Shown here piece after piece: positions 2,740-54,853 of a DNA stretch of 64,000 nt; the first letter of the stretch is position 1, and each line of letters begins with the position of its first letter. Position numbers and translations under genes: made by a program. Under the pieces are notes generated by a model that saw only the letters and a program-made list of their open reading frames with translations, was not told the origin of the DNA and ran no database searches. The DNA lies in IMG/VR virus record IMGVR_UViG_3300029131_000181. One strand, written 5' to 3'. Origin of the DNA: a virus.

Positions 2740-4173
2740 TCAGCTGTTCGATTCACCCGGCAGCCACTGCTGAGGATAAGCGCGAAGCAGATTTTTCGGT
2801 ACGCAGTCATTCAGAGCGGAATTCTCAGCAAGAGCCATATCAATGATGTAGTAATCATTGCCGTTGCGCATTACATCGACGCTCCACTGCCCTGTCAACT
2901 CAATGCGAGGAATAACCTTCTTCAGCTCAGCCAGAACAGTTTGAACGCTTTCGTGGTAACGCTGGTTCAGAATGTCTTCATGCATCTTGTAGACAACATA
3001 ATCATGGCGTTCCTGTGGGCTGCTGACTTTTTTGAATTCGTTCTTCATAACATCGCTGCGCCAATAAGGACTTGCGCCAAGGATTTCCTTTGTATCAAAA
3101 TCCACAAACACGCGATATTCAGTGTGCAGCGGCAAACCGTTGTAGATGGTGGGGTTATTTTCTTTGTCCTTGATGTATTCTCTGACGACCCACTCGTTCG
3201 TGGTGTTCGCGCCGTAGAAGCAGCGATTGTTCAGAGGGGATGCCATCGAGCATGTCAGATGATTCAAAAACAAGAAATACTCGCCCATCTCATTGATTTC
3301 CTTCGGGTTATGGATATGAGCGTTGCGGAATTCGTATTTGGAAGAATACGTGCCCGTTTTGATAAAATAGTCTTCGTATCCATCAAGATGGAAGACTTTC
3401 TGGCAATAACGGTTCACGATTTCCTTTGTAACGGGATTCAACGTCTCGAAACCAAGGCGGGTAAGCTGCAGCATGGTGATAGGTACGCGAAGAATTTTTG
3501 TGTCCGGAACCTTGAAAAATGCGCTGCCGTACAATCCCTCTACCAGAGGAGGAAACCAGAAGCCCATAGAGTTGGGGTTCATCTCAAGCATCTGATAAGT
3601 GAAGTCATCAAGGTCGAGGATGTCAAGACCTTGACGGAACATGTTGTAGTAGAACATTTTTGTGCTGTCGTTCTTTGCATTCTTGTAGCCTGCGTAGTTT
3701 TGAAGCAATTCCTTGTACGACGGCTCAGAAATGTCAATCTTCATCAACTTTCCGGTGAGCTGCGGACGGAGTTCTTCGGGGTAGCGTTTCAACTCCTCGT
3801 TTGTAACCTCTGTCATAAAGTCGCGGTTGGCAGAGTATGTCACATAATAGCCACCGCGTTCCGCGTTGTAGATGTACAGACGCGTTTCAAGCACCAGTTC
3901 TGTGACGATGCGGTCAATGAGCGAATTGAGTTCCGGTGGGAAGTAGACCTTTTTGTCGAGAATTGCTTTGACTGTAGCTGTATCCCACTGGAGCATATTT
4001 TCATGCAGCTCTCCGCTTTCAAGAACCTGTGTCTTATAGACCTCATCAAAGGTTTTGAGGGCATCAGGGTCAGTTTTGAGCATTGCTGCAAGCTCCTCAT
4101 AAGAAAACGGCTTATCTTTCTTATCGGTTAAGATGGCGCTGATTTGTTCAAACATGTCTTTTGTTTCAGTCAT
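2740..4173 (-). CDS. ATP-grasp-fold protein (R2K/CDC123-like clade candidate)
   Basis: 477-aa ORF with RBS AAAAGGAG. Motifs HTEYRVFVDFDTKEILG and QWSVDVMRNGNDYYIIDMALAENS are typical of ATP-grasp C-terminal halves. Confidence 0.6.
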   Translation of the reverse strand: MTETKDMFEQISAILTDKKDKPFSYEELAAMLKTDPDALKTFDEVYKTQVLESGELHENMLQWDTATVKAILDKKVYFPPELNSLIDRIVTELVLETRLYIYNAERGGYYVTYSANRDFMTEVTNEELKRYPEELRPQLTGKLMKIDISEPSYKELLQNYAGYKNAKNDSTKMFYYNMFRQGLDILDLDDFTYQMLEMNPNSMGFWFPPLVEGLYGSAFFKVPDTKILRVPITMLQLTRLGFETLNPVTKEIVNRYCQKVFHLDGYEDYFIKTGTYSSKYEFRNAHIHNPKEINEMGEYFLFLNHLTCSMASPLNNRCFYGANTTNEWVVREYIKDKENNPTIYNGLPLHTEYRVFVDFDTKEILGASPYWRSDVMKNEFKKVSSPQERHDYVVYKMHEDILNQRYHESVQTVLAELKKVIPRIELTGQWSVDVMRNGNDYYIIDMALAENSALNDCVPKNLLRAYPQQWLPGESNS

Positions 4174-5345: not shown

Positions 5346-5672
5346 TCACGCGTTGACGATACCGCCGTGCTTGGCCAGAACCGCGTCTACGGTTTCTACG
5401 GGCACATACCCGTAGACCGTAGCCAGCGGTGCCTCGTCGTCTTCAGCAAACGGCAGAAACTCTTCGACCTCCTCAGACAAGTAGCTGAGTTCGACCTTAG
5501 AGTAATTGCCGTCCGACAGGTCTTCGTTCGGTATGCAGTAGTGCATGCCACTTGCCTGAATCGACAGGGTGAAGCCGTCTGCACAAACTGCTTCCGGACG
5601 AAGTGCAGCAGTACCAAAGATGGTCTTGCTGAAGGTTTTGCGGAGAAATTCGTTGGTATTGAAAATAGCCAT
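5346..5672 (-). CDS. hypothetical protein
   Basis: 108-aa ORF with RBS AAAGGGAG. Confidence 0.6.
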   Translation of the reverse strand: MAIFNTNEFLRKTFSKTIFGTAALRPEAVCADGFTLSIQASGMHYCIPNEDLSDGNYSKVELSYLSEEVEEFLPFAEDDEAPLATVYGYVPVETVDAVLAKHGGIVNA

Positions 5673-5707
5673 AGTAATATGCTCCCTTTCTGTGTGTGAG
5701 ATGTTTC

Positions 5708-6448
5708 TTAGATGTACTTTTCCCAGAAGCGCTCGAACTCTTCGTCCGGCATCTGGGCTTCGGTTTCATCCATCACGCGGTCGTAAGTATCGCTGGAAAT
5801 GTCGGTCCCGACAAAATCAGCAACAGCCTCATGTCCGCGCTTCTGGATGGCATCCTTCAGGATAGCCCAACGACATTCGTGAATGGCATCATCCAGCGTT
5901 TTGTTGCCATCAGGCTGCCAATACTCGCCTGTCTGCTGAATTCTATAAAGCTCATCCAGCGCATCATCAACATTGTTTTCGAGAAGAATATCGTCAATAA
6001 AATTGATAGGATAATCCTTGCCGTTGATTTTCACTTCTGCATAACTGAACGAGTCATCATTATCGGGGCTTGCGCAGCATTCGACAGCAAAAACTTCATG
6101 GGTTTTGCGGTTGGCTTTGCATGGCAGATTGAACATTGCACCGGAATCAAAGCAGGACTCAATGCAGGCATTGACCACATCGCTTACGGGAGACTCTGCA
6201 GCCTCCTGATATTCCGGCATGTGCCAGATGTCGATGCTTGCCTTGTTGGTATCCTCAATGTTGCGGACCTTCAAGACACGGACACCCTTCTTCTCCATGT
6301 GAATGACGGCACGGCACAGGTCCACACGGATTTCGTGTGAATCCATAATGGTGCCACGGTCATCCTTAGGTAGGAAGATTTCGATAACTTTGTTGATATC
6401 GGGGGTTTCGGCGACGAAATAGACTTTGTCATCGTGAATTTTGAACAT
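5708..6448 (-). CDS. hypothetical protein
   Basis: ORF 5708-6472 trimmed to MFKIHDD (AAGGAG 9 nt upstream). Acidic, no motif recognised. Confidence 0.65.
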   Translation of the reverse strand: MFKIHDDKVYFVAETPDINKVIEIFLPKDDRGTIMDSHEIRVDLCRAVIHMEKKGVRVLKVRNIEDTNKASIDIWHMPEYQEAAESPVSDVVNACIESCFDSGAMFNLPCKANRKTHEVFAVECCASPDNDDSFSYAEVKINGKDYPINFIDDILLENNVDDALDELYRIQQTGEYWQPDGNKTLDDAIHECRWAILKDAIQKRGHEAVADFVGTDISSDTYDRVMDETEAQMPDEEFERFWEKYI

Positions 6449-17283: not shown

Positions 17284-18807
17284 TCAGGCAGCCATCTTCG
17301 CTGCGGTTTTGCCCTTCGGACCCTTCTTCCGTGCATTGGCTTCAAGCTCCTTCTTGTTGGTATCATACCAAACCTCGAACTCCTTGAAGTTGTTCAACGC
17401 CCAAATCTCAGGAGAAGCCTTGCGACCGTAAGTTTCTTCCAACAGGTGGATAACTTTGCGGCCAACTTCTTCCATGATTTCGGCATCGTATTTGCCGCCA
17501 CCGCAGTAAAACCCTTCAGGCATAATAATGTCGTATTTAGGGTCAAGAACTTCAAGCCCCGGCTCCAAAACGCGAATGCCTTTGTAGCCAGCTTTGCGTA
17601 CAGCTTCAAATTTGAAGCGGTCCTTTTCGGCAGCATCTGCGTGCGGATATTTTCCATTATACTCATAAATGAGTCTCTGGATATGGTCCACGAAGTCTAA
17701 TCCCAAAAGACTATTTTCGCCCAAGATGTTTCGAACATCAAAGAAGGGGTTGGCAATTCCGTTTTCACCGGCAAATGCCAACATGGGACGTGTGTAAAAC
17801 CACTCCGGCTTGGAAATGGCATTGATTCTTCGCATTTTGCAGTCGTAGCATCCAGTAAGACCGTTGTTCACAGAACGAACAATATTGTTAATTGCAGCTT
17901 CGAATTCTTGCCCGCAATCACGGCATTTGAAGAAGGCTTTTTTGTTGCTTTGAACAGTTACTTCTGAAGCAGAAAGCTTGTTTTTACTACTCCACATGGA
18001 GGCTGCTTTCGGACATTGCGACGCAAGGTCATTGATGCCGGGAACAACCCTCCGACCTACGCAAACTAGGCATCCAGTGTTGCCGTTTTTTACAGCACAA
18101 ACAACATCTCCAATTATGGCTTTGAACTCTTGCCCACAATCCGGGCACACAAAGAAAGCTTTTTTCCCGCTTTTAGCTGTGACTTCTGAAGCGGAAAGCT
18201 TATTTTTATTACTCCACATAGCGGCTGCTTCTGGGCACTGTGACGCAAGGTCATTGATGCCAGGGGCAACTCTTAGTCCTCTGCAAACAGGGCAACCTGT
18301 GTTTCCGTTACTTACAGAATAGACAACGTGTTCGATTTTGGCTTCAAATTCTTCCCCGCAGTCCGGGCATACGAATATCGCCTTTTTGTTGCATTTGACA
18401 GCAATTTCCGAGGCAGACTTTTTGTTTTTGTTACTCCACATAGCTGCAATTTCCGGGTATTTCGACGCAAGGTCGTTGATGCCGGGGATAATCTTTCTTC
18501 CTGCGCAAACAGAGCAACCCGTGAATCCCTTGTCTACAGAACGAACAACATTAAAGATTCTGCTTTCAAATTCCTGCCCGCAATCAGGACACACAAAAGT
18601 GAGTTTTTTATTGCTTCCAGTAGTAACTTCAAAGGCAAGTTTCTTATCTTTTTCGCTCAGCATTGCAGCTACTTTTGGGCAAGCAACAGCAAGGCAATTT
18701 TTCTTAACCACTTCATACGGCATCTCAATGCCAAGAGCCGGAATAGGAGCGCAAGAAGCGCAGTTGCAAGAGTTAGCGTGCATCATAATTTTCATGTTAG
18801 TATTCAT
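17284..18807 (-). CDS. zinc-ribbon repeat protein with C-terminal Vsr/DUF559-like domain
   Basis: Trimmed to MNTNMKIMMH (AAAGGAG RBS). Four 74-aa repeats of the form PGINDLAS..P..AAMWS.KNK.SASEV......FF.CPDCGQEF......V......GNTGC.VC. C-terminal LDFVDH..IYEYNG..H resembles the Vsr-like nuclease core. Confidence 0.75.
   Translation of the reverse strand: MNTNMKIMMHANSCNCASCAPIPALGIEMPYEVVKKNCLAVACPKVAAMLSEKDKKLAFEVTTGSNKKLTFVCPDCGQEFESRIFNVVRSVDKGFTGCSVCAGRKIIPGINDLASKYPEIAAMWSNKNKKSASEIAVKCNKKAIFVCPDCGEEFEAKIEHVVYSVSNGNTGCPVCRGLRVAPGINDLASQCPEAAAMWSNKNKLSASEVTAKSGKKAFFVCPDCGQEFKAIIGDVVCAVKNGNTGCLVCVGRRVVPGINDLASQCPKAASMWSSKNKLSASEVTVQSNKKAFFKCRDCGQEFEAAINNIVRSVNNGLTGCYDCKMRRINAISKPEWFYTRPMLAFAGENGIANPFFDVRNILGENSLLGLDFVDHIQRLIYEYNGKYPHADAAEKDRFKFEAVRKAGYKGIRVLEPGLEVLDPKYDIIMPEGFYCGGGKYDAEIMEEVGRKVIHLLEETYGRKASPEIWALNNFKEFEVWYDTNKKELEANARKKGPKGKTAAKMAA
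17790..18681 (-). repeat. 4 x 222-bp in-frame tandem repeat inside the CDS
   Basis: ACTCCACA landmark recurs at 17989, 18211 and 18433 (period 222). Limits approximate. Confidence 0.8.
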
Positions 18808-18927
18808 GATAGATTTCTCCTTTGTTATCAATAAAAATAAAAAAGCAGCCACCCTTCCCTCTTTTGAGGGCAAAAGCGACTGCTTTACGTTCAATGGGTA
18901 TTGAGTTGTTATTCATGAAGAATTGCT

Positions 18928-19113
18928 TCACTCGTCCAGCATAACCTGCAAACGGGCGTTGAATTCCTTCATGTCGGCGCTTTCCTCGGCTGCAGCAAGG
19001 ACACGCGGATAAATTTCCGGATTCATGCTCTTCAGCATGTTCAGAGTAGAAAGAAGCAGAGGGTTGGTGATAGTCATAGTAAGCATCTCCTTGTTATTCA
19101 TAGTAATGTTCAA
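18928..19113 (-). CDS. hypothetical small protein
   Basis: 61-aa ORF whose stop-proximal region is followed by the next gene. The upstream gene overlaps by 4 nt. Confidence 0.45.
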   Translation of the reverse strand: MNITMNNKEMLTMTITNPLLLSTLNMLKSMNPEIYPRVLAAAEESADMKEFNARLQVMLDE

Positions 19114-19952
19114 ACGTTGGTATTCGTGCGATGGCCTTTCAGCGTGCCCTTGTTGAACTGTGTCAAACGGGCGTGCTTCAGAACAAATCCGTCTTCGAAT
19201 TGAACGTCAACGGCGTTTGTGCTGATGATGCGAATGATGGTTGCTTTCGAGCCATCATTCATGGTCTTGGTCATAGGTCCGCTATACTCGACCTTAAAAT
19301 CGAAAGGAAGCGGCTTATGCTTGGTGCAGCAGGGACAAGAAGAACTGCCGTTATTGATGCAGTGGACAAGAGAATTCACGTGAGTGACGTATTCTTCTCC
19401 GCAATCCGGGCATACAATGACGACCTTCTTGCAGCTATTGGCACTTACTTCACGCGGGGAGAAAGCGTTTTTGCTGCTCCACATTTTTGCCACGGCAGGA
19501 GATGTGGTTGCCAAGTCATTGGTTCCGGGAACGACTTTCATGCCACGGCATACGGGGCAAGTGAAGGTTCCATTCTCGATGTCTTTGACCAAAGAGATGA
19601 TTTTTGTTGTGTACTCTGCATGACAATCAGGGCATACAACAATCACCTTTTCGGGACTGTCACAGCGAACTTCGTCGGGATGAATCGTGTTTTTAGGACT
19701 CCACATAGCTGCAATTTTGGGATACTTGGTAGCCAAATCATTGACTCCGGGAACAAGCTTTTCGCTATGGGTTTCTTCGGCTTTGAATGCCGTAGTTACC
19801 TTACGGTTTTTGACCGTTTTGAATCGGCAGACAGGGCAGGCAGTTACGCCACGCTGCTTAGCTCTAACAAGGTTTGCCTCGTAGGTTGTGTATTTGCAAC
19901 CGCAATCGGGGCAGATGGTGATGACTTTTTCGTTCATGTTAATGTTATTCAT
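19110..19952 (-). CDS. zinc-ribbon repeat protein (paralog of 17284-18807)
   Basis: Trimmed to MNNINMNEKVITICPDCG. Three CPDC..CPVC treble-clef-like units with VPG.NDLAT linkers. Weak RBS. Confidence 0.65.
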   Translation of the reverse strand: MNNINMNEKVITICPDCGCKYTTYEANLVRAKQRGVTACPVCRFKTVKNRKVTTAFKAEETHSEKLVPGVNDLATKYPKIAAMWSPKNTIHPDEVRCDSPEKVIVVCPDCHAEYTTKIISLVKDIENGTFTCPVCRGMKVVPGTNDLATTSPAVAKMWSSKNAFSPREVSANSCKKVVIVCPDCGEEYVTHVNSLVHCINNGSSSCPCCTKHKPLPFDFKVEYSGPMTKTMNDGSKATIIRIISTNAVDVQFEDGFVLKHARLTQFNKGTLKGHRTNTNV

Positions 19953-20008
19953 GATAGTTCCGGGTGCTGCTCTTGATGCAATCTCCACAGCGGGTCGGTC
20001 GCTTCTGC

Positions 20009-20044
20009 AAAACAAAAAGGACAACCTCAAAATGAGGCTGTCCT
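20009..20044 (-). terminator. leader hairpin + U-run between promoter copy 7 and gene
   Basis: Minus strand AGGACAGCC-loop-GGTTGTCCTTTTTGTTTT. Confidence 0.6.
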
Positions 20045-20100
20045 TGCAAAAGCGGAATGTTAAAAATAAATTGGTAAGTGGTATCTTTGATACAACATCT

Positions 20101-20128
20101 ATCATAGCCATCTCGCACACATTGTCAA
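20101..20128 (-). promoter_or_regulatory. motif-class promoter, copy 7
   Basis: TTGACA-ATGTGTGCGAGATGGC-TATGAT. Confidence 0.55.
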
Positions 20129-20129
20129 A

Positions 20130-20169
20130 CAAAAAAAGACCCTGCCCGCATTTTGCTGCGAGCAGGGTT
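20130..20169 (-). terminator. rho-independent terminator
   Basis: Minus strand AACCCTGCTCGCAGCAAAATGCGGGCAGGGTCTTTTTTT, after gene 20189-20509. Confidence 0.75.
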
Positions 20170-20188
20170 TGCTTTTGCACTGTTGTGC

Positions 20189-23284: not shown

Positions 23285-23393
23285 AAACAGCCTCCCACCG
23301 CAGTCAGCATACTACTGATTACGATGGGAGGCTCAAAACCTTTTGTGATGGTTCTATTATATCACGCCTTGCGAAAAACTCAAGGCAAATTTC
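23285..23393 (-). repeat. promoter + leader-hairpin cassette, copy B
   Basis: TTGAGT-N16-TATAAT with a TGA extension (-10 at 23356-23361). An 18-bp imperfect hairpin at 23291-23331 is followed by CTGTTTATTTT and the RBS. Confidence 0.7.
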
Positions 23394-23399
23394 AATAAC

Positions 23400-23789
23400 T
23401 CAGTCAATATCTAAGTTACCAAAATCATCTGCAGGAGGCTCGTTGTACCAGTCATACTCCTCTGCTTTTTCATCATCCAAATCGTCATCAAAGAAGTCGT
23501 CATCAGTGACGGGAATGTCTTCCCTGATGTCCTGCTGTGGCACGAACGTGGCAGCGGTAGCGGTATAGTCGCCGTCTTCGAGCACAATCTGCACGGTTGC
23601 GATATCCCCTACTTTGGGGACAGAACCGTTCTGAACGGATGCATCGGGGTTACGCTGGACATCCACCTCGACATCGAGCGCCGGGATGAAGACCACGATG
23701 GTCTTGTGGGTGACGGTAGTCACGGTTCCGGAGTAAGCGGCTTCGTTTTCGTGAATGTCCTGGCGGACGGTTTTCTTAGTATTAAACAT
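23400..23789 (-). CDS. hypothetical protein with beta-rich N-terminal half and highly acidic tail
   Basis: 129 aa, RBS GAGG. Tail DDDFFDDDLDDEKAEEYDWYNEPPADDFGNLDID. A possible OB-fold/SSB-like organisation is speculative. Confidence 0.65.
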   Translation of the reverse strand: MFNTKKTVRQDIHENEAAYSGTVTTVTHKTIVVFIPALDVEVDVQRNPDASVQNGSVPKVGDIATVQIVLEDGDYTATAATFVPQQDIREDIPVTDDDFFDDDLDDEKAEEYDWYNEPPADDFGNLDID

Positions 23790-23799
23790 TAACTTCTAC

Positions 23800-24200
23800 C
23801 TCGCTGATTTTGTATGCTTCATCGTGGACCTCCCCACCTAAACCTTTCGGCTATAGTTGGGGCTTCTCCGTGGGTTGTAACCCCACGGTAAGTCTCTGCG
23901 TAACCCGAAGGTAGAGATACGACCCGAACTTAGCTAACAATGCCTGACGGCATTGGTCGCCACATAGGGGTTAGTCTCCCGCAAAGTTCTCGCAACACAG
24001 TGTAATCCCAACAGATGGGCCCGGGCTGTTGAGTCGCCACGGGGGGCTCAACAGTGAATGCAACTGTTTAAGGGAGTACAATGTGCATTGGGTTCTACGC
24101 TCAATGTCAGGAACTTTAGCCTTACACTGAGACCATGCCTTCTTTGACATGGGTTTTGTTACCTCGCGGATGAAATACCGGGCACCAATGTTATAATTGG
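23800..24200 (-). ncRNA. candidate large structured RNA or structured 5' leader (class unknown)
   Basis: ~400 nt with no ORF of 60 aa or more in any frame. Nested hairpins at 23832-23862, 23868-23888, 23893-23917, 23939-23954, 24026-24054 and 24132-24153. UUCG and GAAA tetraloops appear only in the minus-strand reading. Confidence 0.45.
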
Positions 24201-24353
24201 GAGCTAGAAAACCCGCAGGCTTTCCTGTGGTATGAACGGCTCCTGTTTTTGAATTTTTTTGTAAAATAACGACCTAGCAGCTTGGCCAACGGTATAGAAT
24301 GCATGTATAATATATGTATGAAATGATACTACATAACTGTCGGAGGAATCTTT

Positions 24354-24758
24354 ATGGCATTGCCCGGTATGCTTGAGCTTACGAAGGAACAAACGCAACG
24401 GCTTGTGAATATCATCGAGGATAAGCAAGGTTGTATTTGCAACGTATCTAATAGTATGCGCACAGTCTGGATTACTTCTGATGACGGTGAAAATGAACTT
24501 AGGGTTTCATTTCTTTGTAATTTTGCTTTGGTTATTTCACGTGTTAGGTTTTCTATAAAGCGTCATGGTACAATGTCTCTGTTGCTCGATGCGTTGAAAG
24601 AAATTTGCGAAGACTATGGTGTGCATCGTATCGTTATGCAATCTGTACTAACTCGTGAAATGGAAGTCTTTTGTCATAAAGCTGGGTTTCGAGCAGACCC
24701 GAACGCAACAATGGAGGTTGATGGGATTCTTACAGGGGATTATAAATTGGATTTTTGA
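24354..24758 (+). CDS. small GNAT-like acetyltransferase (tentative)
   Basis: 134 aa with GGAGG RBS 8 nt upstream and TATAAT at 24306-24311. KRHGTMSLLLDALKEICEDYGVHRIVMQS resembles GNAT motif A. Confidence 0.5.
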   Translation: MALPGMLELTKEQTQRLVNIIEDKQGCICNVSNSMRTVWITSDDGENELRVSFLCNFALVISRVRFSIKRHGTMSLLLDALKEICEDYGVHRIVMQSVLTREMEVFCHKAGFRADPNATMEVDGILTGDYKLDF

Positions 24759-24844
24759 AAAAATACGACATTTGTATTCCCATCTGTGCCGGTGAACATA
24801 CCGAACATGAAATAGCGATATTTTTTCATGATATGCTCCCACCA

Positions 24845-25981
24845 TTACATATCCGACTTCGCCGCATTACACTTCTTGCACAGCATCTGCAGATTGTCAT
24901 CAGTGGTATGTCCGCCCTTGCTCCAAGGAATGATGTGGTCGCCTTCCATATCCTCAAAGGCGTACTCGGTGTTGATGCCATTTGCAACGCACAAGGGGCA
25001 CTTGTGACCCTGCCGCTCATAGGCGCGGAGTTTCTGCGACTCAGTAAATGCACGAAGGGACAGATGCTTTTCGTCGCGCCAAGTGCGGTCAGAGAGGATG
25101 AACGGGACAATGCCTGCCTTCTTGGTCACGTCATCATCCAGCACGAGTTTCTTGATATCAGCGTCCAGAGCGTTGCTATTATACTGCTTTGCATGGTACT
25201 TGTTGTAGAGTAGTCCCCATGCCTGTGTATCCGTAATTCCCTTCCGCTTGGTCGGGAACAACATTTTAGCCCAGTTGATTACAGACTGGAAGTAAAGCCA
25301 GAGGTCATTGGCGTCCTCGTCATGCTGGTGAATCGCCATGTACATCTGCCCGGATTCCAGACCATCACGGTCAGCAATCCACGCCAGTGCCTTTTCCAGC
25401 AACTCCTGCCGAATCGGGTTACCTTTCAGGTATCCGTCAGCCATCTTCGCAGCAACACAGTTGCGTTTCGAGAAGTAGTTCTTGGCATCGGCCAGCCACG
25501 GTCCTGTATAAGTAGCGTTCAGCAGCTCCTGCGGAGTCAACACCTCACCGGCGATGTTGATGCGCTTGAACCATTCCAGTTTCTCGGCTTCGGAGCCTTC
25601 ACAGATATTCACGGTCAACTCGTAGTCCAGAATTTTCTGTTTTTCCTCATCTGTCAAGTTCTGGAAGAACTTGTCGTTGCCGTTGATTTTGACGGGGAAA
25701 TCCTTGTTGACATACTGTGCAATGGAAATTGTCCGCTGTTGTCCATCGAGAACCTCGTAGGTATCTGGACCGGTCTTGGACCAGTACATGAGGTTCAACG
25801 GGAATCCGTTCATTACCGAATCAATGACGGCTGCACGCTGTTTATCGGAGAAGCAAAAATTTCTTTGGTAGCTTGGCCTAATCGTGAGGCGATTGTTGTA
25901 CCCATATACGCCACTGTCTCCGTCATCCGAATAGTTCTCTACAAGGTCGGATACCTTGATTTTGGTTTCTGTGATTTTCAT
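24845..25981 (-). CDS. DUF262 (GmrSD N-terminal-like) + HNH endonuclease fusion
   Basis: IRPSYQRNF..EVLDGQQRTISI is the DUF262 hallmark. C-terminal HKCPLC..GDHIIPWSKGGHTTDDNLQMLCKKCNAAK is an HNH motif. ATGA overlap with the upstream gene. Confidence 0.85.
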   Translation of the reverse strand: MKITETKIKVSDLVENYSDDGDSGVYGYNNRLTIRPSYQRNFCFSDKQRAAVIDSVMNGFPLNLMYWSKTGPDTYEVLDGQQRTISIAQYVNKDFPVKINGNDKFFQNLTDEEKQKILDYELTVNICEGSEAEKLEWFKRINIAGEVLTPQELLNATYTGPWLADAKNYFSKRNCVAAKMADGYLKGNPIRQELLEKALAWIADRDGLESGQMYMAIHQHDEDANDLWLYFQSVINWAKMLFPTKRKGITDTQAWGLLYNKYHAKQYNSNALDADIKKLVLDDDVTKKAGIVPFILSDRTWRDEKHLSLRAFTESQKLRAYERQGHKCPLCVANGINTEYAFEDMEGDHIIPWSKGGHTTDDNLQMLCKKCNAAKSDM

Positions 25982-27923: not shown

Positions 27924-27959
27924 AATAAAAAATCCAGCACCGAATTACTCAGCACTGGA
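27924..27959 (-). terminator. hairpin + U-run directly before the methyltransferase RBS
   Basis: Minus strand TCCAGTGC-loop-GCTGGATTTTTTATTGGGAG. Overlaps the stop of the upstream gene. Confidence 0.5.
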
Positions 27960-29813
27960 TGTATTTTCCGTATTACAATGACCGCATGATGTTTTCTTGT
28001 TTTCTACAAGACTTTGGGTTATCGCAAAGCATTCGTTTCCGCAATCACATTGACATTTCCATCGAGCATGACCGTTTTGGCTTCCTGCTCTCTCAATGAC
28101 CTTTAGCTTACCAAAGTGCATATTAGCTAAATCGTAAGTTCTTCCTTTTTTGACGAACTTATCGCGTGATGGATTTGCTTTCAAAAAGGCATCTGCTTCC
28201 TCTTCTGTCATGCTTTCGTATTCATTGGCAAATAACCAATGATATCCTCCGGCAACTGTACGTAGCTTGTTGCAGCAGTTCAAGATAGGCGAACCGCCGC
28301 TAATCCCGTATTTAAGAGAAGCCTCTTTTGCTGTAGAAAATCTCTCTTTTGTTTCAACGCAAATCACACTCTTGAAGTGTTTTTGTTTATAGCATTCAGG
28401 GCAGTTATGCCCGTATACTCTATCGGCTATTATCATCTTGTAGGAATGACCGTTTTTGCATTTCCACCAGCATTTTTCTGCAGACCCGGATGAGAAATAT
28501 TCGGGCTTCAAATTCTTGTTTTTTTCGTAATCCCATTCAGCAACAATTTCAGGATGTTCTGTAGCAAGGTTGTTCTTTTCGTTCCGTCTTCTTTTGCCTG
28601 TTGTACAAACAGGACATGTTGCGTTTTCTTTTGCTCTGCCATTGATGGGTGCTTCCCATTTATGCCCGCACTTAGAGCAAATCCAATGAACCATTTCTGA
28701 GCTAGATGATGACACCATCATCGGGTCAATGCCTACATTCAGTTCGTAGTCCCATTCTTTCAGGAGTTCCGGATGCCGTCCGCCCATACTTCGTTCAGCT
28801 TTGTAATCTTTGTATTGACGATAGATGTCTTTTGAATCCTTTTGTGTATCAATGTTAGGTTCAGAAACGCCAAGCATCTCTAAGCATTGGCGAATTGCTG
28901 CGTCGAGCGTTGCGTGCCCTCTATTGTTTTCTCTGATGATATTCTCGCTATTACGAATTTCCTGAAGCCCATGCTCGCGAATACGAATTATCCGAATTCC
29001 ATTCTGCTTGCATTTTTCGGACTTTTCTTCGTCATTTTTCACTCTTTTCTCATCAGAATGGTATCGAACACCATCGTATTCTACTGCAGTGCGAATGGAG
29101 GGGATGTAAATGTCCAGCTCTTTTCCAATAACTTTCTTGTTTCCAATAACAGCCTCTGAAAAATACTTTTTTGCATAATACGCTACTGCTTGTTCTTGGA
29201 ACGAGGTCTGTCCTTTATCGATAGTGCTGCATATCGGGCAACTCTTGATACGCTGGATGTAATGATATACGCTTGCCTGCCATTCCGTGCCACAAGCAGA
29301 GCATTTCCACCATACAACAATATTGCTTCCTTGTGTCAGCATACTGACATCTACGTCCTTATTTTTTGCAAAGTCATAGTCTTGCATAGCTTCTGCATTA
29401 TCTACAAGCATTTTCGAAGCTTCGGTAATGTGTTTGCAACAACCGCAAGACTTCACTTTTCCCCGCAGCAAAGAAGAGCGATAAGCAACAAATTCTTTTC
29501 CGCAGCTACACATACAGTTATAACGAATGTTTCTATGCCCCGTGCTTCCAATCGCATCTTCTGCCAAAGAAATAACTTTGATACCGTTGTGTTCTTCGCC
29601 AACCAAATCCTGGTATGTACGTTTACGGTCTTTACCTCGGCAGTCTTTACACTTTAACCCTTTCAAGAGCGCGTCGATACCAATTATCATTGTGTTTCCG
29701 CAGCAGTTACATTTCACCAAATAGGTATCTGCTTTTGAATTAGAGCCGGGGATAGTTTCGAAAACTGTTAAATCTCCGTATGTTTTGCCTGTTCTATTTA
29801 TTTTCGCCGCCAT
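27945..29813 (-). CDS. mosaic zinc-ribbon / Vsr-like endonuclease / NUMOD-like HTH protein (homing-endonuclease-like)
   Basis: 622 aa. CxxC ribbons throughout. KELDIYIPSIRTAVEYDGVRYH is a Vsr/DUF559-type core. HPELLKEWDY..WICSKCGHKW is a DUF4379-like ribbon. FSTAKEASLKYGISGGSPILNCC..GGYHW is a NUMOD/IENR-like HTH. Confidence 0.75.
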   Translation of the reverse strand: MAAKINRTGKTYGDLTVFETIPGSNSKADTYLVKCNCCGNTMIIGIDALLKGLKCKDCRGKDRKRTYQDLVGEEHNGIKVISLAEDAIGSTGHRNIRYNCMCSCGKEFVAYRSSLLRGKVKSCGCCKHITEASKMLVDNAEAMQDYDFAKNKDVDVSMLTQGSNIVVWWKCSACGTEWQASVYHYIQRIKSCPICSTIDKGQTSFQEQAVAYYAKKYFSEAVIGNKKVIGKELDIYIPSIRTAVEYDGVRYHSDEKRVKNDEEKSEKCKQNGIRIIRIREHGLQEIRNSENIIRENNRGHATLDAAIRQCLEMLGVSEPNIDTQKDSKDIYRQYKDYKAERSMGGRHPELLKEWDYELNVGIDPMMVSSSSSEMVHWICSKCGHKWEAPINGRAKENATCPVCTTGKRRRNEKNNLATEHPEIVAEWDYEKNKNLKPEYFSSGSAEKCWWKCKNGHSYKMIIADRVYGHNCPECYKQKHFKSVICVETKERFSTAKEASLKYGISGGSPILNCCNKLRTVAGGYHWLFANEYESMTEEEADAFLKANPSRDKFVKKGRTYDLANMHFGKLKVIERAGSQNGHARWKCQCDCGNECFAITQSLVENKKTSCGHCNTENTSSAE

Positions 29814-32042: not shown

Positions 32043-32462
32043 ATGCAAATGTTCGTCAATAATAACCTGTCATATGGTAGAGGTTATGTTTACAATATTC
32101 AATATCATATTGTGTGGTGTACAAAGTACAGAAAACCAGTTTTGATAAACGAAACAGAACAATCGCTAAAAGAGTCTCTGCAGCAGACCGCCGAAACCAT
32201 AAAAATCAATATTGTAGAAATGGAATGCATGCCTGACCATATTCACCTGTTGGTGGAGTGTTCACCGCAGCATTTTATCCCGGATATGATAAAAGTGCTT
32301 AAAGGCAACAGTGCAAGAGCTATTTTTATCGCCAATCCGGACTTGAAGAAGCAACTTTGGGGCGGGCATCTTTGGAACCCAAGCTACTTTATTGCAACCG
32401 TCAGTGATAACACGCGCAAACAAGTACAAGAATACATTGCATCTCAAAAAATAAGAAACTGA
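32043..32462 (+). CDS. tnpA: IS200/IS605 Y1 (HUH) transposase TnpA
   Basis: YNIQYHIVWCTKYRKPVL, the PDHIHLLV HUH motif and C-terminal YIASQ tyrosine. Confidence 0.95.
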   Translation: MQMFVNNNLSYGRGYVYNIQYHIVWCTKYRKPVLINETEQSLKESLQQTAETIKINIVEMECMPDHIHLLVECSPQHFIPDMIKVLKGNSARAIFIANPDLKKQLWGGHLWNPSYFIATVSDNTRKQVQEYIASQKIRN

Positions 32463-32480
32463 TGAAAGGGGGGCTTCGCA

Positions 32481-33812
32481 GTGAAAATCACTTCCAGCTA
32501 TGCTGTGGAAATCAAAAAGCAGAAAATGTTCGACAATACTATAAAGATTTATCGCGAAGCCGTTTCTTTCTTGATTGGTTGTTTTAACAAAGAATGGGAT
32601 TCTATTCAAAAAGTAGAGGGTGCCAAATCTCGAAAGAGTTTTGCCGAGAAGTTAATTCATACTACAAAATACAGCACTGCTAAATATGATTTCGATGCCA
32701 AGTTTTATAAGTTCCCTAGTTACCTGCGCAGAGCGGCTATTCAAGCAGCACTCGGCTCTGTAAGCAGCTACTACAGTAGCCATAAGAACTGGGAAGCAAA
32801 CGGCAAGGTTGACAGGGAGCCAAAACTTCAATGCGATAGATTTTGCTTCCCGGCTTTTTATAAGACCGTTATGTATGAGGAAAGCAACAAACCAAACCAG
32901 TGCTATCTGAAGCTGTATAAAAACAATGACTGGGTTTGGGTTCCTATCGCAATGCGTGCCACCGATGTCAAATACATCACGAAATACTGGTCACATTGCG
33001 AAAAGAGTGCTCCTGCACTCGAAAAGAAGTACGGGAAGTATTTCCTACGCTTTGCCTTCGAGGAAGAGGTAAAACTCTCCGAAACTGAAATTCAAGACAG
33101 GCGTATCTGCGCTGTAGACCTTGGTCTCAATACTGACGCCGTGTGCAGCATCATGACTGCCGATGGAACTGTCCTTGCAAGAAAATTTATCAATTTTGCA
33201 AGTGAAAAAGACCATCTGTATCATGTGCTCAACCGTATTAAGCGTAAGCAAAGAGAACATGGACCTAAGAGTGCTGCTGCTATGTGGCGTTACGCCAAAG
33301 CCTTGAATAACGATATAGCGAAAAAGGTTGCTGCTGCGATTACTGAATTTGCTGTGCTTTATTCTGTAGATGTGATTGTTTTTGAACATTTGTCATTTAC
33401 AGGCAAAAAGCACGGTGGCAGTAAGGCACAGAAGCTGTCGATGTGGAAGCGTAATTCCATACAGGATTATGTGGAACACAAGGCGCACCGCTGCGGTATC
33501 CGGATTTCGCGTATCTGTGCTTGGGGGACAAGCAAACTCGCCTTTGATGGCAGTGGTGCTCTCAAGCGTGATGAAACCAATCGTGCCCTTGCAACGTTTG
33601 CAAGCGGCAAACAATACAACTGCGACCTAAGTGCGAGCTACAATATTGGCGCTCGCTACTTTGTCAGAGAGTTGCTAAAACCCTTGCCAGCGATGGTAAG
33701 GTCTCAGCTTTCGGCTAATGTTCCGGATGTTGAGCGTAGAATCCAAGTTACACTTGCCACGCTTAAAGTTCTGTATCCTGAGCTTAAAAAACTCAGTACA
33801 CAGGCAGCGTAA
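32481..33812 (+). CDS. tnpB: TnpB-like RuvC nuclease lacking the zinc-finger cysteines
   Basis: 443 aa with GTG start. RuvC triad candidates are CAVDLGLNTD, VIVFEHL and NCDLSASYNIGARYF. The usual CxxC..CxxC segment is replaced by WGTSKLAFDGSGALKRDETNRALATFASGKQY. Confidence 0.8.
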   Translation: MKITSSYAVEIKKQKMFDNTIKIYREAVSFLIGCFNKEWDSIQKVEGAKSRKSFAEKLIHTTKYSTAKYDFDAKFYKFPSYLRRAAIQAALGSVSSYYSSHKNWEANGKVDREPKLQCDRFCFPAFYKTVMYEESNKPNQCYLKLYKNNDWVWVPIAMRATDVKYITKYWSHCEKSAPALEKKYGKYFLRFAFEEEVKLSETEIQDRRICAVDLGLNTDAVCSIMTADGTVLARKFINFASEKDHLYHVLNRIKRKQREHGPKSAAAMWRYAKALNNDIAKKVAAAITEFAVLYSVDVIVFEHLSFTGKKHGGSKAQKLSMWKRNSIQDYVEHKAHRCGIRISRICAWGTSKLAFDGSGALKRDETNRALATFASGKQYNCDLSASYNIGARYFVRELLKPLPAMVRSQLSANVPDVERRIQVTLATLKVLYPELKKLSTQAA

Positions 33813-33985
33813 GATGTACAGATGCTAACTGAGTTATTAGTTTTCTTGCGGTGATGGCTCCCGTCTGGACGCCTGAGCTGAGGGATTACCGTATCTTTCG
33901 TTAGAACGCCGCTACCCATAAAAGGAGCGGGAAGCCCGCGACTTTAGTCGTGGGAGGATTCACTGTAAGGCTTCCGTTATCGCTT
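33813..33985 (+). ncRNA. TnpB omega RNA / right-end region (extent approximate)
   Basis: GC-rich hairpins, for example GGGAAGCCCGCGACTTTAGTCGTGGGAGG, immediately 3' of tnpB. Confidence 0.45.
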
Positions 33986-43570: not shown

Positions 43571-43689
43571 AGGGCACTTCTTCCTTCCGTCTCAAAGACA
43601 ATTTGCCGGGACTGTCTCCCGTTGCCCGCTGCTCGCCGCGTGGAGGCTGTCTTTTGGAGCAGCTGCGCGGACAAAACCGCGCTTTTGAG

Positions 43690-45384
43690 TTACATCTCTG
43701 CGTTAAACAGGTTGCGGAGCTTGTAGGTGATATCCTCGCTGTTGCCGACGATAGCTGCCGCTTCGTTGATGGAAGCGAGCTCCGAAAGACTATCCGCTGC
43801 GTAGTTGTAGCTGATGGTGTAAATGGGGATATCCATACCGGCAATGATGTTCTTCGTATCGGAGAAGCCATATCCGGTATTGTTGTCACCGTCCGTGAGC
43901 ACAAAGATGATGGGCGTGCAATTCCCACCCAGTTCCTGAGATTTCTGGTAGATGCGGTCCATAGCAACGCAAAGACCGTTGTACATTGCGGTGCTGCCGT
44001 TCGCATCGAGGGAGTTCACGGCACCCTTATACAGAGTTTTCTGGGTCAGAGAGAACTGGTTAATGGGCAGGTATTCCCTGACATCTGAATCAAAGCCAAT
44101 GATGCCGATATAGTTGTCGTCATTGATATACTGGATGGTGTTTATCATCGCGGTTTTCAGGGCATTCAGGGGTTCGCCGCGCATCGAGCCGGAAGTATCG
44201 ACAACGAACTCTGCCACAATAGGAATGCCTGAGTCCTTCTCTTCTTTCCAGACACTCTGAGCCTGTGCGATGGTGTTGCCATCGTATGCCTTGCCTGTAT
44301 AAGCATAGTCGTCAAGACCATTGAATCCGTCCTTGGTCGCCTCTGCCTGGTTCTGAGCGCAGAAGGAAACGAAGGCAGCAATAACTTCCTTCTTCTCCGC
44401 AGAGACATTCCCGATGGAATACAGAGGATTATCGTGCCGTACACCGAACGGGATGAACTCGTAGTTGCGCTGTAAGGTCGGGTCATTCTGATAAGACTGA
44501 TACTCCATGACAACGCCGTCCACGATGCCCTTGTCTGCCGACTGGACCATCTGCTGGGTCGTGAAGGATACGAGAGGGACGTTCGCTTGAAATTTCTGGA
44601 AATTCTCAACAGCAGCCGTATCGACAATCGTATCGCTGCCGCTGCTCGCAAGAGCCTCAAGCAGAAAATTAAGACCCGTAGCACTTGTGTAGGGGTTCGA
44701 GTATCCCATCATGAGTTTGCCATCGATGGTTGCGTTCAGAACGGAAGAAACAGACGCTTCACCGTATTCAGAGCGAAGCATATCCCCTGTCTTCTTTGAT
44801 ACGAGAATACCCGCCACATTGCCGACCAGACGGTCAGCCTCAACGGTCAATTCTACGCCCTCGTTCTTCACCAGCTCGCCAAAGAGCGTATTTGAGGGGG
44901 TATAGCACTCGGGCTGATACTTTCCCGTCGAGATGTACTCAGCCGCCGTACCGGACGGAATGGAGCGCAGGGAGACACTCATAGTCTTGTCTCCGGAAGT
45001 CTTGTTGTGCTGGGCGTTGAACTTCTTTGCCATTTCGGTCAGGAAAGAATCTGAGCCGGACTCTGCTGCTTTCTCGCCAGAGGAAAAGATTTCGATGTTC
45101 ACATCTCCGTTTCCTACGACCACGAATGGGTAGGAGGATTCAATGTCGGGCAGTTCATCCTTTGCATCAAGGAATTCAGAGACATCCAGCTGCTGAGGAT
45201 TGACCTTGACCTCCTGCACGCCGATGCGCTTCATCTTGCTGCTCAAGTTGGCATATGCCTGCTCGGACGTCATTGTACTAATGCTGACGTTTGAGTCCCT
45301 CATCACCGTCATCGAAAATACTCCGAGAACAACGCCTACCACAGCAATGGTTGCAACCACAGGGAAAATGTTCTTTTTTGTCAC
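43690..45384 (-). CDS. membrane-anchored vWA-domain protein
   Basis: GTG start after AAAGGAG. N-terminal TM IFPVVATIAVVGVVLGVF. C-terminal MIDAS VVDTSGSMRGEP..TAMYNGL..LTDGDNN. Confidence 0.85.
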   Translation of the reverse strand: MTKKNIFPVVATIAVVGVVLGVFSMTVMRDSNVSISTMTSEQAYANLSSKMKRIGVQEVKVNPQQLDVSEFLDAKDELPDIESSYPFVVVGNGDVNIEIFSSGEKAAESGSDSFLTEMAKKFNAQHNKTSGDKTMSVSLRSIPSGTAAEYISTGKYQPECYTPSNTLFGELVKNEGVELTVEADRLVGNVAGILVSKKTGDMLRSEYGEASVSSVLNATIDGKLMMGYSNPYTSATGLNFLLEALASSGSDTIVDTAAVENFQKFQANVPLVSFTTQQMVQSADKGIVDGVVMEYQSYQNDPTLQRNYEFIPFGVRHDNPLYSIGNVSAEKKEVIAAFVSFCAQNQAEATKDGFNGLDDYAYTGKAYDGNTIAQAQSVWKEEKDSGIPIVAEFVVDTSGSMRGEPLNALKTAMINTIQYINDDNYIGIIGFDSDVREYLPINQFSLTQKTLYKGAVNSLDANGSTAMYNGLCVAMDRIYQKSQELGGNCTPIIFVLTDGDNNTGYGFSDTKNIIAGMDIPIYTISYNYAADSLSELASINEAAAIVGNSEDITYKLRNLFNAEM

Positions 45385-48430: not shown

Positions 48431-48673
48431 ATGATTACTGCTACTGCAACCGCAACTGAAATGCAGAATAATTTTGGAAGATACTTGAATCTCGTTATGT
48501 CTGGTCAGGAAATAATCGTAACAAAAAACGGCCGTGAAGTGGGTCGTTTCATTCCCAAAGATGCTGCCGTTTCCTATCTCACAGATTCCCTCACCGGCAT
48601 CCTTAAAGGAAATTACAACCTTGACGAAGTGAAAGAGGAAAGGCTGAGAGAAAAGTATGACCTTACTGATTGA
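48431..48673 (+). CDS. Phd/YefM-type antitoxin
   Basis: ATG 8 nt after GGAGG. MITATATATEMQNNFGRYLNLVMSGQEIIVTKNGREVGRFIP is the typical Phd/YefM N-terminus. Overlaps the toxin start. Confidence 0.8.
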   Translation: MITATATATEMQNNFGRYLNLVMSGQEIIVTKNGREVGRFIPKDAAVSYLTDSLTGILKGNYNLDEVKEERLREKYDLTD

Positions 48674-49064
48674 CGCTAACATCGTATTGGATGTATTGCA
48701 AAACCGAGAAAACTTTGTGAAGGAATCCGCGATGATATGGAAGCTATGCGAAACAGAGCAAGCAAAAGGCTATATTTCCACGCTATCCTTCGCAAATATT
48801 ATGTATATTCTCCGAAAAGAACTCACTTCCGATAAAATCGAAGAAGTATATCACAAACTGTGTTTGATTTTTGAATTTGCTGATTTCAGTTCTTCTATTC
48901 TTTCAAAAGCTGTTGAAATGAACTGGAAGGATTTTGAAGATGCAGTTCAAAGTGCTACTGCAGAACAAATTCATGCCGATTATATTATTACAAGAAACGT
49001 TCGTGATTTCACAAGAAGCAAAGTAGTCGCATTTACTCCGACAGAACTTCTAATGAGAATCTGA
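48657..49064 (+). CDS. PIN-domain (VapC-like) toxin
   Basis: LLIDANIVLD, DFEDAVQ and ITRNVRDF provide the PIN acidic residues. Confidence 0.85.
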   Translation: MTLLIDANIVLDVLQNRENFVKESAMIWKLCETEQAKGYISTLSFANIMYILRKELTSDKIEEVYHKLCLIFEFADFSSSILSKAVEMNWKDFEDAVQSATAEQIHADYIITRNVRDFTRSKVVAFTPTELLMRI

Positions 49065-54504: not shown

Positions 54505-54853
54505 GCAAGATACTCCTTTCGTTAAATAGTAATGAAACTATAAGTCAGGGCTTGCGCCCCGTGGTCCACTTCGCCAATGTTATGCACTGTTTTAGCCTTT
54601 CGGCATGGCTTACGCACTTCTCCTACCCTTAGAGATGTTTAACGTAATATGTATCAACGGCTTGCACCATTGACACATACGCTGCCCGCAGAGCCCGACA
54701 CTTGTGGAGCATATCGGGGTGCCTATATTATTAGTACACAACGTAGTTTTCCCCACTGCCGGAGCAATGGGCTTAGGCTAATCAACTGGGCTTACAGGTT
54801 GCCCCGCAAGCCCCGTCTATAACCGGTGAACCGGTTTAGGCGGGGTTGTTGAC
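54505..54853 (-). ncRNA. IscB omega RNA (HEARO-type) upstream of iscB
   Basis: ~350 nt, ORF-free and GC-rich between the left end and the iscB RBS. Multiple stems with GCAA/GAAA loops (GGGGCGCAAGCCC, GCCGAAAGGC). Confidence 0.7.

Follow-up and report, generated by a model that had tools for sequence, protein, structure and literature searches.

In an intact tnpB-bearing element of the IS200/IS605 family, the last ~190 nt of tnpB and a non-coding right end of ~190 nt are transcribed and fold into the scaffold of an omega RNA (reRNA), which includes a long-range pseudoknot-like pairing and binds TnpB. The guide is supplied by the flanking DNA, of which 16–20 nt are transcribed beyond the right end, and TnpB cuts TTGAT-flanked empty sites, whereupon the element is copied back in. 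Both the definition of the omega RNA and the TTGAT TAM have been described (PMC10097598), and in the omega RNA of ISDra2 from Deinococcus radiodurans the pseudoknot joins positions -5 to -3 to positions -103 to -105 (PMC10097598). Palindrome-associated transposable elements (PATEs) are IS200/IS605 derivatives that are not autonomous, and many of them encode omega RNAs, for which use in trans has been proposed (PMC10055086). In the case of TldR, the TnpB-derived RNA-guided transcription factors, promoter-repressing guide RNAs have this geometry, with the guide covering the RBS and 5' UTR of an adjacent gene (PMC10705468).

Here we analyse a 64-kb stretch of viral DNA (64,000 nucleotides, hereafter the window), which comes from a large human-gut phage; junctions identical to those of the window occur in human-gut metagenome assemblies. 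On its minus strand, the segment running from 24195 to 23824 is almost certainly the omega RNA scaffold and right end of a TnpB element of the IS200/IS605 family. Taken as a whole, the locus is probably the fossil 3' end of a TnpB-only element of that family, and would now be an inert relic.

Like the ISDra2 omega RNA (PMC10097598), the remnant lies on the tnpB sense strand, ends at a transposon boundary, would draw its guide from the flank and goes with a TTGAT-type motif; in addition, its long-range pairing appears comparable in position to the ISDra2 pseudoknot. The family of the remnant comes from gut Firmicutes and their phages and is likened to ISDra2 by architecture. Unlike ISDra2, it has a longer conserved unit (~330–372 nt from the YNIGARYF motif), and the remnant itself has a truncated tnpB and no left end. 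PATEs similarly combine an omega RNA scaffold and a right end with a nuclease gene that is not adjacent, but they keep both ends, so that TnpA can mobilise them, whereas the remnant has lost its left end and its stump is fused to unrelated DNA. A PATE architecture was ruled out, as the left-end hairpin is absent at the left edge of the cassette described below. The resemblance to TldR (PMC10705468) lies in a would-be guide over the 5' UTR and RBS of the neighbouring gene; however, TldR needs an adjacent nuclease-dead TnpB homologue, and no TnpB-like ORF adjoins the remnant. Since the flank is polymorphic among carriers, a conserved guide of the TldR type against a promoter was not observed, and the relation between guide and target is that of an insertion-site flank, as in any IS605 copy.

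Homology to the 3' ends of tnpB genes

The features of the locus, and of an intact element of the same kind in the window, are as follows.

23400–23789, minus: gene of a 129-aa acidic-tail protein, outside the element, present with or without the insert in L001–L022
23804–23823, minus: would-be guide GATGAAGCATACAAAATCAG, the flanking DNA immediately 3' of the right end, set by the right-end boundary
23824–24195, minus: whole IS remnant, made up of the omega RNA scaffold, the right end and what is left of the tnpB C-terminus, from nucleotide identity and nhmmer
24010–24195, minus: tnpB coding remnant, in frame, from translation and alignment to TnpB C-termini
24196–24774: unrelated DNA at the truncation point, with a 7+7 bp hairpin and T-run (24199–24262), a divergent promoter region and ORF134
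24354–24758, plus: ORF134
24775–24845, minus: 5' stub of gene X (MKKYRYFMFGMF.GTDGN..), from the left-boundary alignment
32043–33963, plus: intact paralogous IS605-type element (tnpA, tnpB and omega RNA/right end)
32043–32462, plus: tnpA (Y1_Tnp, E 4e-41)
32481–33812, plus: tnpB (NF033573 and NF040570 guided_TnpB, E 1.9e-20)

An earlier note on this DNA had described 23800–24200 as an ORF-free candidate for a large structured RNA of unknown class. It was right that no ORF of at least 60 aa occurs in any frame of 23790–24200, the longest being one of 59 aa (23971–24150, minus strand), which is the tail of the TnpB C-terminus remnant. The region is nevertheless partly coding in origin, as 24195 to ~24010 is a remnant of the tnpB C-terminus; the hidden coding explanation that the note had allowed for thus holds for the 5' half. 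The natural unit is 23824–24195 (372 nt), rather than 23800–24200.

The first clue came from a self-BLAST of the window, in which 24088–24195 on the minus strand is 72% identical over 108 nt to 33639–33746 on the plus strand, the 3' end of the intact tnpB of the window. In translation, the minus strand of the remnant reads NYNIGARYFIREVTKPMSKKAWSQCKAKVPDIERRTQCTL..., and the intact TnpB of the window SYNIGARYFVRELLKPLPAMVRSQLSANVPDVERRIQVTL.... A search of viral contigs with the remnant peptide led to full-length tnpB genes whose 3' ends match over exactly 372 nt (24195–23824). Nucleotide identity is 96–97% to L034/L035/L038, where the match (positions 3001–3373) covers the 3' end of a full-length tnpB and the region downstream of it, and 82% to a second group, L040–L057; the 3' half of the remnant aligns downstream of the full-length tnpB genes. 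These relatives have open frames of 497–531 codons with intact D/E/D motifs, match NCBIfam NF040570 ('RNA-guided endonuclease TnpB') along nearly their entire length with E from 1e-15 to 1e-20, and also match the solved TnpB chain 9nzp. Because the NF040570 scores lie below the curated cut-off, the TnpBs of the L034/L041 type appear to form a divergent subfamily.

The coding remnant opens right after the RuvC-III Asp motif (..YNADLNAC/YNIGARYF.., the slash marking the junction; YN[AC]DL[NS]A). A tblastn search with residues 437–488 of the L041 TnpB gave 88% identity at 24195–24040, and the remnant frame is 88–100% identical to the C-termini of L034/L041-type TnpBs and 56% identical to that of the TnpB of the window. 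The cognate stop codon lies near 24010 in L041-type copies; in the window copy the frame continues as far as the stop codon at 23971. A tnpB-only element of the L034/L041 type is the cognate of the remnant.

The 372-nt unit was judged by an nhmmer profile and by explicit pair counts. From bacterial genomes, mostly those of Blautia, Clostridium and other Lachnospiraceae/Oscillospiraceae, 80 relatives of the L034/L041-type TnpBs were fetched and trimmed to the span between the YNIGARYF motif and the ..TTCAC end, and 35 non-redundant sequences were aligned (alignment A4, 436 columns). A profile HMM made from 29 bacterial tnpB 3' ends alone, all with intact genes, found only two matches in the 64-kb window, namely 24195–23835 on the minus strand (E 5.5e-27, model positions 1–329 of 337) and 33639–33963 on the plus strand (E 4.8e-41), the 3' end of the intact tnpB. 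The assignment to an unknown class therefore fails on homology, boundary and profile, which point to an omega RNA (reRNA) scaffold and right end. The statement that the region resembles neither omega RNA in the window was mistaken, since it is 72% identical over 108 nt to the tnpB at 32481–33812 and one HMM matches both. By profile and alignment, the intact IS605-type element, whose omega RNA/right end finishes ...GGAGGATTCAC (33963), and the remnant belong to one omega RNA family and have the right-end terminus motif GGAGG.TTCAC in common; the intact element differs in being complete, with tnpA, and in its TnpB, which shares only ~50% identity with the TnpB cognate to the remnant.

A cmscan of the whole window against Rfam 15 at the gathering threshold returned nothing at this region; an HDV-like ribozyme at 43594–43663 is the sole Rfam match of the window. 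None of the families that the earlier note had considered worth scanning, or that were added to them, was matched (ROOL, GOLLD, HEARO, raiA, RAGATH-18, riboswitches, tmRNA, RNase P, 6S and introns), and in 23300–24800 at E <= 10 only chance matches of the snoRNA and miRNA type appeared, at 13–18 bits. No similar DNA was found when the region was compared by BLAST with GenBank phages and PLSDB plasmids. The small acidic protein encoded downstream had suggested an ssDNA promoter (Frpo-like) or a retron ncRNA; both candidates were dropped on the tnpB homology, and neither a conjugation context, for the former, nor a reverse transcriptase, for the latter, was found nearby.

Fold and covariation of the minus strand

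The minus strand of 23824–24195 folds at -137.5 kcal/mol with z = -3.85, and none of 100 dinucleotide shuffles was as good; the plus strand, with z = -2.52, is weaker. The structure is assigned to the minus strand because conserved G-U pairs are strand-specific, and the choice of strand in the earlier note is upheld by these pairs and by the better z value. All six stems listed there map onto minus-strand helices in the minimum-energy fold, the consensus fold or both (23832–23862, 23868–23888, the UUCG stem at 23903–23912, 23938–23955, 24029–24051 and 24133–24152). The predicted elements are as follows.

24133–24152, minus: omega RNA helix 1 (CCAUGUC..GGCAUGG), in the coding remnant, from covariation; stem also seen in the minus-strand fold
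24100–24131, minus: omega RNA helix 2 (CUCAGUGUAAGG..CCUGACAUUGAG), with the strongest covariation of all helices
24090–24095, minus: 5' arm GAACCC of the long-range pseudoknot-like pairing, from covariation of helices 3 and 4
24029–24051, minus: stem seen in the minus-strand fold
23868–23986, minus: non-coding scaffold stems from RNAalifold, namely 23868–23888, the UUCG hairpin 23903–23912 and 23938–23955, all three seen in the minus-strand fold, with the larger, enclosing stem 23894–23986
23832–23862, minus: right-end subterminal imperfect hairpin (CCCCAACUAUAGCC-GAAA-GGUUUAGGUGGGG), from pair counts; stem also seen in the minus-strand fold
23826–23834, minus: 3' arm GGG..GGUCC of the long-range pairing, adjoining the guide, from pair counts

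The RNAalifold consensus of the 35 sequences contains 37 pairs, 28 of which show compensatory changes on both sides. Standard pairs fill 92.8% of the cells, versus 78.8% in column shuffles and 37–45% when the partners were slid by 1–3 columns, and the covariation score is 0.40 versus 0.05–0.12 in the controls. Covariation, which the earlier note had named as a check, is thus strongly supported by pair counts across 35 family members, and a structured RNA element is borne out by fold and covariation alike. The best-supported helices are those at 24133–24152 and 24100–24131, both within the coding remnant; in helix 1, five of the seven pairs changed on both sides and 94.5% of the cells pair (35 sequences), and in helix 2 compensatory changes occur in eight of the ten pairs (e.g., column 73–100, UA:18 CG:11 GC:6). 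Next come the long-range pairing 24090–24095/23826–23834, with 98% and 92% of the cells paired in helices 3 and 4, and the terminal hairpin. Among the nine closest sequences, RNAalifold gave compensatory changes in 25 of 110 predicted pairs, including the stems 23938–23955 and 24029–24051; columns 244–257, for example, are AU:7 CG:2. The window copy fits the 35-sequence consensus except for one A.C, at column 108–433.

A new class of large structured RNA, or a plus-strand RNA ending at the terminator-like hairpin 24199–24262, is extremely improbable given these data. Rfam has no match here, both strands fold better than shuffles, and a plus-strand hairpin is indeed followed by a T-run. However, the missing Rfam match is a gap in the library, because the omega RNA of the intact tnpB is also unmatched; homology to tnpB 3' ends accounts for all 372 nt, the conserved G-U pairs and the covariation fit the minus strand, and the plus-strand hairpin belongs to unrelated DNA beyond the conserved unit.

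Insertion site, truncation and the shared cassette

The homology ends at a single base, ...GGTGGGGAGGT(T/C)CAC (GGAGGTYCAC), after which six unrelated flanks follow (L034, L038, L040, L041, L055 and the window), and because this end base is common to all six contexts the shared stop marks the transposon right end. At the left ends of the full-length elements, homology begins after TTGAT, TTGAC or ATTAC and a subterminal hairpin is found (CCCCGTCTATAGCC-GTAA-GGCTTAGGCGGGG), which the right-end hairpin 23832–23862 mirrors. In the window the left end is absent: 24196–24950 contains no left-end-like sequence or hairpin, and a search for the hairpin motif returned the right end only. The DNA at 24196–24774 shows no similarity to the full-length elements or to their left ends.

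The would-be guide GATGAAGCATACAAAATC is simply the insertion-site flank, and the corresponding target would be TTGAT-GATGAAGCATAC.... It coincides with the 5' UTR of the acidic-protein gene and also with the 3' end of a disrupted gene, here called gene X. In the related phages L019/L020 the empty site TTGAT/GATGAAGCATACAAGATTAG (TTGAT/GATGAAGC...) is intact and matches the would-be guide over 20 nt with two distal mismatches; there, the small gene X comes after the DUF262-HNH gene, and its end, ...TATATTGAT/GATGAAGCATACAAGATTAGTGAG, lies immediately ahead of the acidic gene. Gene X is likewise intact in L015–L017. Its first ~70 nt (24845–24775) and last ~30 nt (after 23824) are left in the window, and it was interrupted by the IS insertion and then by rearrangement. 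These comparisons show that an ancestral copy inserted 3' of TTGAT in gene X, just upstream of the acidic-protein gene. The left end and all of tnpB as far as a point shortly after RuvC-III were subsequently lost in a rearrangement, which joined the stump to an unrelated module with ORF134. The scaffold and the right-end hairpin are left over, together with a would-be guide matching the 5' UTR of the acidic gene.

With the 129-aa acidic protein as query, 22 viral contigs were recovered from IMG/VR, the longest of 389 kb, and the region behaves as a present/absent insert among them. It is present in seven related contigs, 95–99.5% identical to the window, and missing at 15 of the 22 loci first fetched; these 15 share with the window just the last ~28 nt before the start of the acidic gene. 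In L011 the distance from the DUF262-HNH gene to the acidic gene is ~100 nt, versus ~1040 nt in the window. The region does lie directly upstream of the acidic-protein gene, as had been noticed earlier, but the idea of a conserved leader of this gene fails with the 15 loci that have no such element. The acidic-tail protein itself has no match in Pfam, PHROG or NCBIfam. Around the region are genes for an EcoRI-type methyltransferase, a DUF4238 protein, a DUF262(GmrSD_N)-HNH protein and several DUF4379 zinc-finger proteins; elsewhere in the window, an IscB gene lies at 53107–54504.

An exapted 5' leader or promoter region, is an unlikely reading; the remnant would then supply transcription signals or RNA stability to the acidic-protein operon, now separated from the operon upstream by ORF134, which runs the opposite way. 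The plus-strand ORF134 does break the ancestral co-directional arrangement, and the remnant lies on the strand of the acidic gene and its RBS, 35 nt upstream of the start, with its right-end-proximal ~34 nt and flank kept in all nested truncations. Yet the ~34-nt variant makes most of the structure dispensable, most relatives have a ~100-nt or unrelated region upstream of the acidic gene, and a promoter scan of 23790–24350 found no sigma-70-like promoter on the minus strand.

Together with the DNA at 24196–24774, the remnant forms a cassette of ~950 nt (roughly 23800–24800), with 0–1 differences per 100 nt (~99.5% identity) among the window and seven phage contigs. Its flanks differ by ~5–30 per 100 nt, a figure that exceeds 60 in L009, whose left flank is for the most part non-homologous; at the right end identity breaks abruptly, and polymorphism resumes 17–18 nt past the boundary. 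Because it is near-identical while its flanks diverge, the cassette is much younger than its surroundings, and more than one flank haplotype carries it. Such a pattern would be expected if TnpB cut empty sites under RNA guidance and repair drew on a cassette-bearing genome, but it could equally arise by ordinary recombination within a hypervariable phage island. ORF134 was considered as a partner of the RNA (GNAT toxin or homing nuclease) and rejected, having only a sub-threshold Acetyltransf_10 match (E 0.009) and none in PHROGs or NCBIfam; homologues of ORF134 elsewhere have unrelated upstream DNA, and 48657–49064, tried as a paralogue, is unrelated to it.

Present state of the remnant and its meaning

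The remnant in its present state is most likely an inert relic, carried at most as a 5' leader of the downstream gene. This reading is adopted because no cognate nuclease gene was found, the left end is missing and the pseudoknot-like arm is mutated. No intact TnpB gene is adjacent, tnpB being truncated just after the RuvC-III motif at 24195, and a cognate full-length TnpB was found neither in the window nor in any of the remnant-bearing viral contigs, those of 157 and 188 kb included. All carriers have GGTCCAC in place of the near-invariant GGTTCAC, and this T->C change turns a conserved A-U pair into the A.C mentioned above (column 108–433, AU:31 GU:2 GC:1 other:1, where 'other' is the window sequence). 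In L004, a 26-nt deletion (24104–24079) removes the GAACCC arm, and two point changes fall in stems. Shorter stumps with the same junction occur in gut metagenome contigs, of 223 nt in L177 and ~34 nt in L179, each fused to different upstream DNA; because they are nested, they indicate erosion from the left, with only the stretch adjoining the acidic gene always retained. A full-length ancestor with the same junction was not found in viral or metagenome contigs, in which every copy is truncated.

Against plain decay, the 372-nt form is the commonest (seven viral and six metagenome contigs); none of its predicted stems is lost, and its divergence from copies that have an intact tnpB is only ~3%, so that for this form loss of function is probable rather than shown by the sequence. 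Moreover, a cassette that is near-identical across diverged phages could reflect active spread rather than neutrality. Use in trans may be possible, through the ~50% identical (amino acid) TnpB 8 kb away or the closer ones in related phages. We nevertheless think it quite unlikely that the remnant is a functional orphan omega RNA, loaded in trans by a TnpB of the phage itself, a co-infecting phage or the host. With similarly low probability, such an RNA would direct cleavage of TTGAT/GATGAAGC... empty sites in rival phages, and repair would copy in the cassette of ORF134 and remnant, a form of homing. The scaffold is almost intact, and related phages do carry an empty site with TTGAT and the 20-nt match (two distal mismatches); the cassette is ~99.5% identical in seven contigs, with a sharp boundary at the right end and flanks that differ by roughly 5–30% or more; and sibling phage contigs, the empty-site carrier among them, have cognate TnpB genes 94–95% identical to that of L034. 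Trans-acting PATE omega RNAs, moreover, have been proposed (PMC10055086). These points are set against the absence of a cognate TnpB from every remnant-bearing contig and the mere ~50% identity of the TnpB in the window, against the T->C change in the arm adjoining the guide, and against the erosion seen in the 26-nt deletion of the other arm in L004 and in the 223-nt and 34-nt remnants; in addition, no upstream minus-strand promoter match was found, and a hairpin with a U-run lies just 5' of the scaffold. If it were true, an orphan RNA used in trans would extend RNA-guided homing to a nuclease-less cassette, and such a 'hitch-hiking homing cassette' in a hypervariable island would explain the ~99.5% identity and its break at the right end, but the evidence leans against it.

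On the preferred reading of an inert relic, the locus holds a known kind of RNA as a fossil and not a new RNA class, from an omega RNA family that is absent from Rfam. The remnant itself would matter little biologically, and it shows how a decayed IS605 element can pass for a large, ORF-free structured RNA. Its family is widespread in gut Lachnospiraceae/Oscillospiraceae and their large phages and has no model in Rfam 15; therefore, such sites will continue to turn up in scans for novel structured RNAs, and alignment A4 could yield a covariance model. In addition, the empty site and the 372-nt, 223-nt and 34-nt remnants form a natural series that may reveal which parts of an omega RNA locus outlast its nuclease.

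The truncation point and the disrupted small gene

The tnpB stump, a 372-nt remnant of an IS200/IS605-family tnpB 3' end with its omega RNA and right end (23824-24195, minus strand), is adjoined at its truncation point by a strong hairpin, and the 5' stub of a small gene lies further along.

24199-24262, plus strand: two-tier hairpin, GGGAGCU..CCCGCAGG-CUUU-CCUGUGG..GGCUCCU, then UGUUUUUGAAUUUUUUU
24775-24845, minus strand: small-gene 5' stub, MKKYRYFMFGMF.GTDGN...; counterpart at 5480-5960 of the related contig L019

The hairpin resembles an intrinsic terminator on the plus strand, yet the sequence upstream of it has no gene on that strand; it had no match in any fetched locus lacking the cassette, the ~950-nt unit joining the stump to the ORF134 module. 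The small gene is intact in L019, L020 and related contigs, and was destroyed in the window through IS insertion and later rearrangement. Two gut metagenome contigs, L177 (1-1015) and L179 (1-264), carry an identical right-end junction with stumps of only 223 nt and ~34 nt respectively, each joined to a different upstream coding sequence; these stumps are a nested rearrangement series at a single site.

In the phage contig L150 (IMGVR_UViG_3300045988_181707) the target site is still empty, reading TTGAT|GATGAAGC..., and another part of this contig encodes a full-length TnpB with 95% identity to the remnant's cognate type, the full-length proteins whose gene 3' ends match the remnant.

Further mobile-element, ribozyme and zinc-finger loci in the window

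32043-33963, plus strand: complete IS605-type element with IS200 Y1 tnpA, 443-aa tnpB and omega RNA/right end to GGAGGATTCAC
53107-54504, minus strand: IscB-type gene (RRXRR, E 5e-46, plus HNH)
43594-43663, minus strand: HDV-F-prausnitzii ribozyme (RF02682; score 60.4 bits, gathering threshold 44)
17284-18894, 19110-20180 and 27945-29813, all minus strand: three large multi-repeat DUF4379 treble-clef zinc-finger proteins

The omega RNA of the complete element belongs to the same family as that of the remnant and, like it, has no Rfam match; the omega RNA region upstream of the IscB-type gene (~54505-54790) likewise gave no match to HEARO or any other Rfam family at the gathering threshold. The ribozyme is the sole Rfam match within the window; directly upstream of it is a gene for a 564-aa VWA-domain protein (43690-45384, also on the minus strand). 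The three DUF4379 proteins, one of which has additional weak nuclease-like matches (MTES_1575, DUF2726), flank the methyltransferase/DUF4238/DUF262-HNH cluster.

The cassette and the surroundings of ORF134

24354-24758, plus strand: ORF134, a conserved phage protein without family assignment

Across seven phage contigs (L003-L009), the cassette (tnpB stump and ORF134, window 23800-24800) shows ~99.5% identity, whereas the adjoining genes diverge by 5-30% or more. Identity is lost abruptly at both edges, with polymorphism back 17-18 nt beyond the right end; homing and ordinary recombination are candidate routes for the spread of the cassette.

Other large phage contigs (L139-L145; those fetched span 211-251 kb) encode 75-77% homologues of ORF134, with either an IscB gene or a Y1 tnpA in the DNA directly upstream. 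IS200/IS605-family elements seem to land repeatedly in the surroundings of the ORF134 gene.
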